Source of the DNA: Candidatus Contendobacter sp.
Lineage (GTDB): Bacteria; Pseudomonadota; Gammaproteobacteria; Competibacterales; Competibacteraceae
Direction: 5' to 3'
Length of the DNA: 64,000 nt
NCBI GenBank assembly: GCA_029624765.1
Contig: JARSSO010000038.1
Location: 1,364 to 65,363 of the forward strand
Made by a program: the position numbers. Positions 59,201 to 64,000 of the stretch are shown piece after piece. Positions within the stretch are counted from its first letter, which is position 1. Each line of letters begins with the position of its first letter.

Positions 59201-62200
59201 GCGCGGGCGTTGGCCGACCGGATTCACACCGGCGCCGTCGCGCTGCCCCGGCCGGCCCTGGACTGCCTGGACCTGCTTGAAACCATTCTGGTCTACCGCT
59301 TGCCGCACCTATCCCGCCCGGAGATCGAAGCCATGCTCGGATTCACCCACGCCGAACTCAAGCAAAGCCGCTTCTATCAGGAAGTCACCGCTGAAAGCCG
59401 CCAGGAAGGCCGCCAGGAAGGCCGTCAGGAAGGCCGCCAGGAAGAGAGCGTGATGCTGGTGTTGCGCCTGTTGCGGCGACGCCTGGGGCCGTTGCCCGCC
59501 GCCCAGGAGCAACGGATTCGCCGGCTCTCCCTGGCCTAAACCGAGGCGCTGGGCCAGGGCGCCGCTGACGGCGTCGACCACCAGGTGCGGACTGCCCAGG
59601 TGATCCTTGATCAACCGATACGTCACGCCGCCCTTGACCATCAAGTCGGGCGCGTTCCCGCCGGCGTACACGAAGCGGCTGACGACTTGATGGTTGCCGT
59701 CCAGCTCGGCAATGGGACGCAGGCCGTCCTGATAGAGGAAGCCTTGAACGAGAACGCCATCGACCCGCTTGCCGATCCGGCGGTTGCGACCGTCGATCAG
59801 GTAGTCGAGGGTTTTGCCATCGGGCAGGGCAACATGGCGCAGGTTGCCGAGCACGTCGTAGGCGTAGCTCGTGGTCTGGCCGCTGACGGTTTGGGTCTTG
59901 AGTTCGCCGTTGGCGGTGTGGGTGTAGTTCAGTTCAGGGGATTTGCGGGGATGTCGGGCACGTCCGGTGCCCGACCTACTTGGCTACCCGGCTACCCGGC
60001 TGTGGTTAATTGGTCTTGTATTCCATAGGCTCTTTCCATGGAATTTCTCTTATTCCGAAAACCCAATTACCGAAAAAAGTTCTACCGACACGGGAAGTTA
60101 TACGCCAATGTATCGGTGAAACAGAGAGGAGTTCAAAGCGTAATAAACCACCCCATGGATCCTCTAAATAGGGCATTAATGGAAGTGGCATAGCATCTGG
60201 AGCAGAAGCTCTATTTTTATAAATTATCTGCATCTGCGCTGCTGAAACAGTAATAGGTACGTCGCTTTCACGAATACCACTTGCATTAATATCTTCCAAT
60301 CGGATTTTACTCAATCTGTCACTCCAATCACTAAGATTAATATGGGAACTTGTGCCATAACTTGCATCAGACAAGAAACGCAGCGTATTTACTAAAAGGA
60401 AGATACTGATAATAATTAATGATAGAATTATTACCCAAGGCAAGAATATCTTAGTAGTCATGTCGATTTTTAATTTTTCTTTCTGCTATGAGATCTGGCT
60501 TGGTTGAGAAATGACCTTGGCGTCACAGTGTTGGGCACAGGAGTTAGATTATTTACATCAAAAGAAACGTCTCCACAATTATTATAGATAACGCTGTATT
60601 GTGGTGGGTTTATCCTAATCTCTACCATTTTACGAAGTATGTTAAGGTCTTCTTCTGGTGATTGATTAATTCTATAGAATTCATCTCCTCTAGCAGCCCC
60701 TTCAATGGTTTCCGAATAACTTAGTTCTGCCTTTCCTTCCGTTGATAATGTGCTCAACAAATCGCTCATAGAGTTACCACCTGGACCATTGTAGTTATTG
60801 GCTTGATAATCTAACTTCATTACGCCTCCGGGGATATCAACTGCTGTCCATACATGTCCAGCAAGCCCACTACTGCTACCTCCAATGTAACTATCCAATC
60901 CGGTTGGATCCCTCCAATTGACCGGATCATTCTGGACATAGCCGTACAGATTCGCATCCCCACCCGCGAACAGGATCGGGTCCTTGGCGGTCCAGCGTCC
61001 CGTTTCGGGATCATAGTCCCGCGCGCCAAAGCGCACCAACCCGGTGTCTTTATCGTAGAGGCCGCCGACGAAGCCGAACGGTTGGAAGCCAGGGTTGGTA
61101 TCCAGGATCACCCGGCCCCAGACATCGTAGTCCAGGCGTTGGACGATCGTGCCGCTGGCGGCATCGAGCACCAGGCGCGGACCGCCGAGATGGTCCTTGA
61201 TCAGCCGATAGGATTGGCCGCCCTTGATCAGATAATCGGGCGCGTTCCCGCCGGCGTACACGAACCGGCTGACGATCTGGTTGTTGCCGTCCAGCTCGGC
61301 GATGGGACGCAGGCCGTCCTGATAGAGGAAGCCTTGAACGAGAACGCCATCAACCCGCTTGCCGATCCGGCGGTTGCGACCGTCGATCAGGTAGTCGAGG
61401 GTTTTGCCATCGGGCAGGGCAACATGGCGCAGGTTGCCGAGCACGTCGTAGGCGTAGCTCGTGGTCTGGCCGCTGACGGTTTGGGTCTTGAGTTCGCCGT
61501 TGGCGGTGTGGGTGTAGTTCAGTTCAGGGGATTTGCGGGGATGTCGGACACGTCCGGTGCCCGACCTACCGGGCTGTGCTACCAGTTGGCAATATCGTCG
61601 CCTAAGCCGTACTCATCTATTCCATTTGGCCCAACAGAATATAGATCGTATTCGCTATTTCCATATTTAGCAGGGTAAAAATAAATATAATTATTTTCCC
61701 AAGGGTCTATATATAAGTAAGGCCTATTAGAATATGGCCCCTGCCAATTTTCCAAGCTATCATGATTTTTAAATAAATAAATCAATCCCTCAGTTGTTGT
61801 TGGGAAACGCCCAATATCTTTTTTAAACTCTAATAGCGATTGTTCTAATTTTTCTATCTGGAGTTTTGCAACCCTTGTTTTTTCTGTTCTAGCTGGTACT
61901 TGATACCCCCAGAGGAAAAAACAAAAAACGATTCCATAAAAAATGGAAGAAATTAATTTTAAATAAGTTTTCATTATTCACATCGCCTGTAAGCTTCTTT
62001 AGACAAATTCATGGATTTTCTAAATATCTTATCATGTCTACCTTGTTCTATACTAAGCAAGTCCTCGATATTGGTCAATGCTCTCTCTAATATTGTTTGA
62101 TTAGAGTGTTGAAACTCATGAGCAAGAGTTTCTAATAAAAACACTCTACGCTCAGGTGTTAATTCCTTCTCAAATTGCCTACTTACAATAACATCGCCCG

Positions 62201-64000
62201 TAAAAAAGTCTGCTCTACCAGCATCGCCGGGTATATCTCCAAAAGTTACTTTTGCTTTATCGTTATAAAGATCTGGGTGCAAATCTTTTAATATTGCTCT
62301 CGTCCGGTCTATGTCTTCTTGCAAAAGCCCCTTCGTATCCACCCAATTGACCGGATCATTCTGGACGTAGGCGTACAGATTCGCATCCCCACCCGCAAAC
62401 AGAATGGGATCCTTGGCGGTCCATCTTCCCGTTTCGGGATCATAATCCCGCGCCCCGAAGCGCACCAGCCCGGTATCTTGGTCGTACAGCCCGCCGGCAT
62501 AGCCGAACGGCTGAAAGCCCGGATTCGTGTCCTGCAACACCCGGCCCCAGACATCGTAGTCGAGGCGCTGGGCGACGGCGCCGTCGGCGGTGTTGACCAC
62601 CAGCCGCGGGCTGCCGAGGTGGTCCTTGATCAACCGATACGTCACGCCACCCTTGATCAGATAATCGGGCGCGTTCCCGCCGGCGTACACGAACCGGCTG
62701 ACGATCTGGTTGTTGCCGTCCAGCTCGGCGATGGGACGCAGGCCGTCCTGATAGAGGAAGCCTTGAACGAGAACGCCATCAACCCGCTTGCCGATCCGGC
62801 GGTTGCGACCGTCGATCAGGTAGTCGAGGGTTTTGCCATCGGGCAGGGCAACATGGCGCAGGTTGCCGAGCACGTCGTAGGCGTAGCTCGTGGTCTGGCC
62901 GCTGACGGTTTGGGTCTTGAGTTCGCCGTTGGCGGTGTGGGTGTAGTTCAGTTCAGGGGATTTGCGGGGATGTCGGGTACGTTCGGTGCCCGACCTACTT
63001 GGCTACCAACCCCCATGGATCCACCCAATTCACCGGATCATTCTGGACGTAGGCGTAGAGATTGGCATCCCCGCCCTCGAACAGGATCGGGTCCTTGGCG
63101 GTCCAGCGGCCGGTTTCGGGATCATAGTCCCGCGCGCCGAAGCGCACCAGTCCGGTGTCGCGGTCGTACAGACCCCCGGCAAAGCCAAACGGTTGGAAGC
63201 CGGGATTCGTGTCCAGGGTGACCCGGCCCCACACGTCGTAGTCCAGGCGCTGGACCAAGGCGCCGCTGACGGCGTCGATCACCAGCCGCGGGCTGCCGAG
63301 GTGATCCTTGATCAACCGATACGTCACGCCGCCCTTGATCAGATAATCGGGGACGTTGACGCCGGCAGCGTAGACGAAGCGGCTGACGAGTTGCCCGTTG
63401 CCGTCCAGTTCGGCGATGGGCCGCAGGCTATCCTGGTAGAGGAAGCCTTGGCGCAAGGCGCCGTTGATTTTCTTGCCGATCCGGCGGTTTTGGCCGTCGA
63501 TCAGATAAGCGATCTGCTTCCCATCGGGCAGAGTCGGGGGCGTCGGATGATGGAAAAGGTGGGCGGTGCTCACCCTACCCGGCTAGCGACCACAGTACAA
63601 GAAGGCCAAACCGCTCGAAACCAACAAGAACATCAGCAATCCGTTGAGGAAATAAACGGCACTGGCCGCTGTCGTCAATCGGTATAGCGGCTTGTTATTC
63701 CAGCCCTTCGCAAGAAGGGCCAGCAGCATACAAGCTGCCTGTCGCCAAGACGCAGAGCGACAAGAATCGAAAGCTGGAATTTGCTCCAAGGTCGATCCCA
63801 TGCCCGCCCTTGTACCCGCTAAATTTCCACAAATCGAACAGAGCGGCAGCAACCCGACCCCCCGTCAATACCAGGCCCAATACCGCCATCGCCAACAATC
63901 CAAGGGCAAGAACAAGGCAAACTTTCTGAACATGCCTCATCAGTGAACCACCACAATCTGGCCGTAACGAGGCAACGTTTCCGTCGATGGAGCCCACGGC

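Follow-up and report, generated by a model that had tools for sequence, protein, structure and literature searches.

Orphan rhs modules, and the recombination models that account for them, are well established (PMC3150448). In the arrays of orphan rhs-CT/rhsI modules described so far (Poole et al. 2011, PMC3150448; Jackson et al. 2009; Koskiniemi et al. 2014), a partial Rhs core ending in the motif PxxxxDPxGL is followed by a variable toxin tip of low GC content and by a small immunity open reading frame (ORF); the modules have no translation start of their own, lie in tandem downstream of an rhs gene of full length, and are reshuffled by homologous recombination. Published accounts describe a variable retained core and nearby insertion sequence (IS) elements, and do not mention junctions with repetitive extragenic palindromic (REP) sequences. 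REPs of the GTAG type combine this tetranucleotide with a palindrome, are multicopy and extragenic, occur after ORFs, to which they may lend a TAG stop codon, and form doublets with GTAG on the outside, which also flank the genes of REP-associated tyrosine transposases (RAYTs) (Bertels and Rainey 2011, PMC3116915; Di Nocera et al. 2013, PMC3733652; Messing et al. 2012, PMC3479197). Such a doublet, in which a spacer divides two GTAG REPs of inverted orientation, is called a REPIN. Here we describe an array of four rhs fragments (A to D) from Candidatus Contendobacter sp., in which the 5′ edge of each fragment is formed by half a REPIN fused to the rhs core. The array lies at the right-hand end of a 64-kb window (the whole stretch of DNA that was analysed, to whose positions all coordinates refer unless another locus is named), taken from a contig of a metagenome-assembled genome (MAG) from activated sludge; all rhs fragments are encoded on its minus strand.

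The preliminary description of this DNA had placed a GTAG-prefixed hairpin in front of every rhs fragment, and all four were found on the minus strand. Junctions A, B and C share the 27-nt sequence GTAGGTCGGGCACCGGACGTGCCCGAC (59979-59953, 61569-61543 and 62998-62972, respectively), in which hairpin A forms a perfect 9-bp stem with a 5-nt loop, B differs by one change and C by two; a search of the 64 kb allowing up to three mismatches returned only these three copies, versus none expected. Units A, B and C, with spacings of 1590 and 1429 nt, are 92-94% identical, in keeping with their suggested origin as copies of one event. Junction D (GTAG-GGTGAGC-acc-GCCCACC, 63578-63558, a 7-bp stem with one mismatch) belongs to another REP family and has another core breakpoint, starting at position q407 of the core query, about 32 codons deeper into the core than A-C, so that the proposal of at least two independent REP/rhs junctions was borne out. 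Additional units containing GTAG are present 5′ of the hairpin at each junction (CCGGGTAG CCGGGTAG CCAAGTAG at A, CACAGCCCGGTAG at B, GGTAGCCAAGTAG at C and CCGGGTAG at D). The gap from the preceding stop codon, put earlier at no more than about 30 nt, measures 26 nt at A, 9 nt at B, 0 nt at C and 4 nt at D; at junction C, the TAG within GTAG is itself the stop codon of fragment D.

As had been supposed, these hairpins are genuine GTAG REPs; they are drawn from two families. When the bare A-C hairpin was scanned in one genome per species, it proved to be GTAG-tagged and multicopy, among the matches listed, in Competibacteraceae, Sulfuricella, Sedimenticola, Methylomicrobium, Cardiobacteriaceae and others, taking the form GTAG-GTCGGGCAC...GTGCCCGAC in many gamma- and betaproteobacterial genomes, usually with the 5′ extension AGCCNNGTAG, at times in tandem. 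A REP of this family adjoins a full RAYT gene (NCBIfam NF047646, 203 bits) in comparison locus L075, RAYT remnants adjoin such REPs in L122, L212 and L217, and a truncated RAYT is also present in L207; both of the window's REP families are found together with RAYT genes in relatives. Junction D carries a somewhat decayed hairpin from a second family, whose intact copies in L207 and L212 read CCGGGTAG-GGTGGGC-acc-GCCCACC-TTTTCCATC... Chance hairpins are ruled out by the three copies against none expected, together with the GTAG-tagged multicopy occurrence elsewhere. In several genomes, one to three tandem copies of short GTAG-containing units (CCGGGTAG, CCAAGTAG and similar) adjoin REP hairpins on the 5′ side (window 59976-59999; L207 4068-4094; L005, L038 and L094; L122 at 16464), and their copy number varies among the window's own junctions.

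Copy number was estimated from unitig depth over the REP A region in three metagenomes from two studies, on the assumption that all matching unitigs belong to one host genome. Depth over the REP A hairpin was 5200-5500, 3000-3190 and 3430, with a single-copy depth of 227, 132 and 147 in the same runs, which in each of the three corresponds to about 23 copies of the A-C family per genome-equivalent, spread over at least 14 distinct unitig contexts. About 5-6 of these approximately 23 copies bear the rhs side of the junction, an enrichment that arose because one event was co-amplified. The window was also re-scanned with five REP-family patterns, which yielded no further GTAG- or CTAC-tagged member. 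A REP so abundant that it follows most stop codons is thereby ruled out, as there are only about 23 per genome-equivalent and the window has no others; the REPs that are present are extragenic, 0-26 nt past the preceding stop. A strong GTAG-prefixed hairpin, CGGCTTGTCCG-ctgg-CGGACAAGCTG, lies on the plus strand at 37772-37801 between two minus-strand ORFs and is unrelated to the REP families.

Comparison with complete REPINs defines the anatomy of the junctions. A complete doublet of the A-C family consists of a GTAG-tagged REP1, a spacer of about 23 nt (consensus ATC...ATCCCCTGAAC..) and an inverted REP2 (GTCGGGCAAC...TTGCCCGAC-CTAC). Complete doublets of this family were found in L122, L207, L212 and L217, and those of both families occur across these four loci and in unitigs, including a unitig from the same sludge communities with identical REP1 and spacer yet an intact REP2. 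In alignment A2, junctions A, B and C and that of L122 match complete REPINs through ...CCCCTGAAC, past which the junctions read TGAAC-TACACCCACACC, which belongs to rhs, and the doublets CC/TT-GTCGGGCAAC, which belongs to REP2. In alignment A1, D is identical to the L207 doublet through ...CCCCCGACT, after which the rhs sequence CTGCCCGATGG replaces T-GGCGGGC-cat-GCCCGCC-CTAC; D therefore switches to rhs exactly at the start of REP2, and full-REPIN unitigs part from the window at 63533. The window copies consist of REP1 and spacer only, with the rhs core in place of REP2, so that no doublet is complete and each junction is half a REPIN fused to rhs core. Junction boundaries were placed by alignment to the sequences of relatives rather than parental sequences, and the local junctions are backed by 31-mer unitigs from the mixed communities of seven public metagenome runs. 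The GTAG orientation is uniform on the coding strand because a doublet bears GTAG at both of its outer ends.

The four half-REPINs, all on the minus strand, can thus be delimited as follows. Half-REPIN A (59927..60004) comprises CACAG, three GTAG octamers (59999-59976), the perfect hairpin (59975-59953) and a 26-nt spacer (59952-59927); its triple octamer is also found 5′ of a RAYT-flanking REPIN in L207. Half-REPINs B (61517..61578) and C (62946..63007), both delimited in alignment A2, carry CACAGCCCGGTAG, the hairpin GTCGGGCAC-cggac-GTGTCCGAC (61565-61543) and a 26-nt spacer (61542-61517) in B, and GGTAGCCAAGTAG, the hairpin GTCGGGCAC-cgaac-GTACCCGAC (62994-62972) and the same spacer, ATCCCCGCAAATCCCCTGAAC(TGAAC) (62971-62946), in C. 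Half-REPIN D (63532..63582), delimited in alignment A1 against the complete L207 REPIN, supported by unitigs and present as the same junction in L212, comprises CCGGGTAG (63582-63575), the hairpin GGTGAGC-acc-GCCCACC (63574-63558) and the inner spacer TTTTCCATCATCCGACGCCCCCGACT (63557-63532). To judge from these alignments, the two REP families were broken in separate events, each 0-2 nt from REP2's inner foot, and were joined to different core sites. The A-C orphans and three orphans from Methylocaldum start at the same rhs codon (TAY-NCC-YAC-ACC-GCC-AAC-GGC; window 59926, 61516 and 62945; L125 9932, 11485 and 14859), although the REP families upstream of it differ. A universal orphan breakpoint is ruled out, as breakpoints span q52 to q500. 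Both spacer families hold TGAAC near the break, and microhomology may therefore have guided the join.

Could the REPs simply have arrived later? A secondary insertion of REPs or REPINs into the spacers between immunity genes and orphans, with subsequent hitchhiking and no part in junction formation, would agree with the normal 3′-end preference of GTAG REPs, which lie mainly downstream of ORFs and frequently provide the TAG stop codon (PMC3733652), with the REPINs that occupy gaps between toxin-antitoxin cassettes in L207, and with the several REP families present elsewhere in L122 and L125. However, the elements at the junctions are halves, while insertion would leave a whole REP or REPIN; copies of a single junction are present in A, B, C, L122 and L212; and the family is of low copy number, with no other copy in the 59 kb of flanking DNA. 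We regard such late arrival as quite improbable.

Instead, we think it probable that half-REPINs are the scars of illegitimate joins which founded orphan rhs units and were later reshuffled by homologous recombination. From the structure of the junctions we infer the following order of events and cause of REPIN breakage. In the ancestor, a REPIN would have been situated just after an rhs toxin-immunity operon, and was probably the doublet flanking a RAYT gene; intact doublets directly after rhs-immunity genes in L051, L095 and L217 show this arrangement today. An illegitimate join of the tandem-duplication type would have fused the REPIN to an internal site in the rhs core, with the break at the inner foot of REP2, to yield an orphan unit with REP1, spacer and core fragment at its 5′ edge. 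Joins of this kind would have occurred at least twice and involved two REP families, that of the A-C type and that of the D type. The half-REPIN and core fragment would then have become the constant repeat of the array; homologous recombination, whether inside an rhs locus or from one to another, could add, remove and swap the toxin/immunity modules between copies of this repeat. Recombination of rhs with rhs would also carry REPs from a RAYT locus into an otherwise REP-free region, where the REP may now be a passive passenger that by chance supplies the stop codon of fragment D. The REPIN may have been broken by hairpin-stalled replication or palindrome processing, or possibly by a RAYT. Since the same junction is found in A, B, C, L122 and L212, the REP predates duplication of the unit. 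The statement that every fragment begins at a REP holds for all four fragments, yet the REP travels with the repeated unit, so that there were two founding events rather than four. The suspicion that homologous recombination alone is insufficient is likewise upheld, since the junctions are non-homologous fusions of a broken REPIN to the rhs core, which homologous recombination alone cannot have made; as to the accompanying suggestion of REP/RAYT chemistry, a RAYT is unlikely to have cut or joined anything here.

REP sequences reportedly occur at the join points of tandem duplications. REP clusters of P. fluorescens are rearrangement-prone recombination hot spots (PMC11708052). As in those cases, a REP here stands at the novel joint of a duplicated segment in rearrangement-prone DNA. 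The classical join points recombine REP with REP, whereas here a REPIN was joined to a non-REP site in rhs, and the joint was amplified in a toxin array. Orphan rhs arrays and REP-mediated rearrangement are known already; the proposed half-REPIN founding joins are a variation on them, alongside a real neighbourhood link to RAYT genes, and our search of the literature found none linking orphan rhs arrays with REP junctions or reporting RAYT clustering at rhs 3′ flanks. Compared with known orphan rhs arrays, the 5′ edge here is a defined non-rhs element, which reveals the founding illegitimate join. With known REP/REPIN-RAYT systems the locus has in common GTAG and palindrome, multiple extragenic copies after ORFs, TAG as a stop codon, doublets with GTAG outside and, in relatives, a RAYT beside the same REPs. 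It differs from them in that the window's own copies are singlets, severed at the boundary of spacer and REP2 and fused to coding DNA, in that about a quarter of the approximately 23 family copies are at rhs junctions, and in that RAYT genes cluster at rhs 3′ flanks.

The rhs arrays of relatives, which the preliminary description had proposed as a check, contain REP-bounded orphans in L122, L212, L213, Methylocaldum and L137. L122 and L212 are Contendobacter contigs with a nif neighbourhood, a locus distinct from that in the window; they carry both junction types nearly letter for letter, and at the end of their arrays stands a complete doublet, after which come the initial 52-55 codons of a RAYT gene. 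In L213, an immunity gene stops inside the GTAG of a third REP family, an rhs fragment begins 11 nt past the hairpin, and a doublet and a nearly full RAYT are found further on. In L137, two successive orphans each start with GTAG-CGTGCGGT...ACCGCACG, 9 nt and core, and Methylocaldum orphans start at half or whole doublets of a further REP family. By contrast, about 30 of about 40 orphan breakpoints in 80 metagenome loci from other taxa have no GTAG hairpin, nor have the orphan breakpoints of Marinobacter and Desulfurivibrio arrays, ruling out a universal link between REPs and orphans. Because most orphans elsewhere lack a REP, orphans can arise without one; in lineages that bear REPs, these are the join points. 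Among homologues of the core fragment, the top 120, which come from many phyla and are 65-81% identical, all measure 220-377 aa, a length typical of orphans or of genes truncated by contig ends, with no full-length Rhs among them; the short lengths are partly due to the query and to short contigs.

Read 5′ to 3′ on the minus strand, the array consists of the ORFs of a preceding cassette, REP D, core D, REP C, unit C, REP B, unit B, REP A and core A. The preceding cassette is represented by two small ORFs of 89 and 100 aa in overlapping frames (63583..63997, stop TAG at 63585-63583), probably immunity-type membrane proteins with no Pfam match, and unitigs (joint 64000>62374) place another rhs core end just past 64000. 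Core fragment D (62995..63531) extends from ...LPDGK to a PxxxxDPxGL-type end, followed by VAK and a stop, with neither toxin domain nor immunity gene. Orphan unit C (61974..62945) is composed of a core fragment (62945-62325) with the PxxxxDPxGL end and a low-GC toxin domain, and precedes a 131-aa immunity-type gene (61579..61974) matching Pfam T2SSG (type II secretion pseudopilin G domain, E 3e-21). The toxin of cassette C, which has no Pfam match, contains HEFQH, a metallopeptidase-like motif. Orphan unit B (60470..61516) has a core fragment (61516-60896) with the same type of end and a low-GC toxin domain, and its 151-aa immunity-type gene (60006..60461) encodes an N-terminal membrane helix with no Pfam match. 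Core fragment A (59543..59926) ends after about 128 codons against the 3′ end of a plus-strand pseudogene.

In part the window resembles the published orphan arrays. The core end PxxxxDPxGL is present in B, C and D, A being truncated before the motif; a toxin tip and small immunity ORF with a GC shift (33-45% versus 64%) are seen in B and C, D having no tip and A being truncated; and the orphan units have an in-frame TAG upstream and no ATG ahead of the core. The full-length rhs gene of the window's array lies past the contig end, and in L122, L213, L125 and L216 a full-length rhs is found upstream of the orphans.

Presence and absence of cassettes could be observed directly. In bioreactor runs X4/X5, cassette C (61636-62319) has a depth of 0-6 as against about 147 for its neighbours, B and the flanks being kept, and the corresponding joint skips one 1.43-kb unit. 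Cassette C is thus nearly absent from these runs, and the array is therefore polymorphic between populations; the skip of one unit is the outcome that would be expected of recombination between the repeated half-REPIN/core segments. Unitigs additionally revealed “empty” units at about single-copy depth (joints 61573>62325, 59986>60895, 61575>63003 and 61577>63011), in which a unit-specific core end, right after the leucine codon of DPxGL (or TGGG), is followed by the REP 5′ extension, toxin and immunity genes being gone. Among their joints, e.g., GGGGCTT|CCGGTAGGTCGGGC and GGATTGG|TAGCCAAGTAG, one has little or no microhomology. The window's own fragment D has the form of an empty unit. Such units could be deletions at GTAG-like microhomologies, or products of a more specific process.

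Several points weigh against illegitimate founding joins as the origin of the half-REPINs. The founding events are reconstructed rather than observed, and the main rhs gene lies past the contig end, outside the window. The MAG runs through repeated DNA, and MAG repeats can be mis-joined; yet the junctions are backed by unitigs and by independent assembly in L122 and L212. The copy-number estimate assumes that all matching unitigs come from one genome. TGAAC is duplicated at the A-C junctions, which is unexpected under simple microhomology joining or annealing, and the toxin-less empty units are not explained by founding joins of this kind. Finally, two breaks 0-2 nt from the REP2 foot and three junction types at one rhs codon look more specific than generic fragility of a palindrome would suggest.

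The last point bears on an alternative involving a RAYT, a Y1 HUH enzyme that would work chiefly in cis, on REPINs that flank its gene near rhs. The enzyme would have cut single-stranded DNA at a REP and joined the freed strand to the rhs core; mobilisation of cassettes between directly oriented REPs, in the manner of IS200/IS605, may be a further activity. Besides the two independent breaks so close to the REP2 foot, this alternative draws on the position of RAYT genes. In ten loci (L122 11625-11789, L212 9737-9901, L213 9292-9723, L217 10001-10552, L164 9199-9744, and L187, L203, L136, L138 and L149), the toxin/immunity module is closely followed, on the rhs strand, by a RAYT-family gene or remnant, and L173 has a RAYT-family match beside an rhs fragment. 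In 84 rhs-centred loci (747 kb) there were eight RAYT matches, seven of which fall in the 30% of the DNA that lies within 3.5 kb past the core end (P 0.0013), compared with a single match in about 0.9 Mb of REP-centred control loci; RAYT genes downstream of related rhs loci are thus far commoner than expected for a usually single-copy gene. The first intact Competibacteraceae RAYT that was looked up (P0131, the closest) lies 1.3 kb past a full-length Rhs. In L217 (8690-9200), tandem repeats consisting of a REPIN and the first 21 RAYT codons directly follow a full-length Rhs and separate it from a P0131-type RAYT, each being cut where the next REP 5′ extension starts, a second kind of REP-edge duplication joint which shows that the locus rearranges at REP edges. 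Cassettes B and C are, as in IS200/IS605, flanked by similar same-strand hairpins with a 5′ tetranucleotide, and a related RAYT is found near the rhs arrays of relatives.

Against this stand several observations. No RAYT gene, which the preliminary description had proposed to look for, was found in the 64-kb window with either an E. coli RAYT or the validated L075 RAYT as query, and the RAYT of the GTCGGGCAC family is only a remnant in L122, L212, L217 and L207. Unlike in IS200/IS605, there is no transposase in or near the window units, no target or cleavage sequence was recognised, and the sequences of cassettes B and C were seen only in unitigs and contigs of rhs arrays, not at unrelated sites. 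Several of the RAYT-linked loci represent one Competibacteraceae lineage, leaving about six independent cases. In E. coli K-12, RAYT and rhs are not known to be neighbours. RAYT fragments, including the same remnant, also occur in toxin-antitoxin islands without rhs, which rules out a general adjacency of the remnant to rhs and fits shared residence in flexible islands. The chemistry is equivocal as well: E. coli TnpA-REP cleaves and joins REP single-stranded DNA in vitro under a C|T cleavage rule (PMC3479197), and the earlier wording that RAYTs cleave next to the tetranucleotide is imprecise. On the REP1 strand, CT dinucleotides lie close to the joints, yet neither junction is reproduced by any single C|T-to-C|T join, and the GTAG strand of REP2 has no CT at or near the break. 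All in all, we consider strand transfer by a RAYT possible but unlikely.

A broader version, according to which RAYTs acting in cis at rhs loci would cut REPINs at the hairpin foot, join them to rhs DNA and thereby make and reshuffle REP-bounded cassettes, turning a domesticated Y1 transposase into a generator of toxin-array diversity, seems to us rather unlikely. If true, it would explain the rhs-REPIN-RAYT neighbourhood, the precise breaks at REP2, the breakpoint shared by Contendobacter and Methylocaldum, and the empty units.

The illegitimate founding joins that we favour bear on the biology of both rhs and REPs. “C-terminal displacement” explains the exchange of orphan cassettes and not the illegitimate joins that founded them, which may be readable here as fusions to the core of a downstream REPIN broken at the REP2 inner foot, made on two independent occasions and paralleled in other genera. 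The statistically unexpected clustering of RAYTs at the rhs 3′ flank and the rearrangements at REP edges point to a definite site at which in vivo RAYT activity could be sought. If the REPs are only passive, they would have been carried into REP-free regions by rhs-rhs recombination and could serve as markers of cassette ancestry.

The state of the hairpins bears on whether they have been selected as RNA elements, i.e., as 3′-end stabilisers, processing sites, or insulators that silence orphans or protect immunity transcripts. REPs stabilise upstream mRNA and can attenuate transcription (summarised in PMC3733652), every immunity gene here has a hairpin 0-26 nt behind it, and the change in copy B preserves a G-U pair in RNA. 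However, DNA folding weakens from -15.3 kcal/mol in A (z -2.75) to -9.6 in B, -7.7 in C and -4.7 in D, the D hairpin alone folding no better than shuffled sequences. Stems B, C and D contain mismatches with no compensating changes, and those in C and D are disruptive. Terminator-like sites were found at none of the junctions on the minus strand, the A-C hairpins being followed by ATCCCC and D only by TTTT, and an intrinsic terminator is ruled out, there being no T/U-run terminator call. Neither a known RNA family (Rfam) nor a tRNA was found at the junctions, and most orphan arrays of other taxa have no such hairpins. With decayed stems and no terminator-like site, the hairpins therefore look like relics rather than selected structures; the idea that they set mRNA processing or stability between modules was not supported, and we view an RNA role as most doubtful.

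A resemblance to integron cassettes may also be mentioned, in that promoterless cassettes lie between imperfect palindromes. Unlike attC sites, the palindrome here is a 23-nt GTAG-tagged hairpin, and the constant part, with about 640 nt of rhs core in it, offers ordinary homology for recombination; attC is ruled out, as direct reading of the hairpin and its flanks yielded no GTTRRRY. An integrase gene was not seen either, although no search aimed at one was made.

Other mobile and toxin-related sequences are found around REPs in the comparison loci. In L122 (8940-10060), an IS4/IS1634-like transposase remnant lies in the loop of a REP, the left 25 nt of which (CAGCCCGGTAGGTCGGGCACAGGAC) are present on both sides, and IS110-family genes lie beside REPs in L164 and L213. 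The island at L207 1-14421 (also in L208) contains about 12 toxin-antitoxin pairs (BrnT, PIN, HigB, ParE, HepT, YoeB), all on one strand; full REPINs from each of the window's two families occupy many gaps between the genes, and RAYT fragments and a serine recombinase are also present.

In the window, the array is closed by a broken DUF2887/DUF4351 gene of the Rpn-like putative nuclease/transposase family (59062..59539, plus strand), the stop codon of which coincides exactly with the truncation point of fragment A. This pseudogene is split into two overlapping frames and contains a 12-nt tandem repeat, CAGGAAGGCCGC, in four copies (59378-59444), encoding RQEG repeats.

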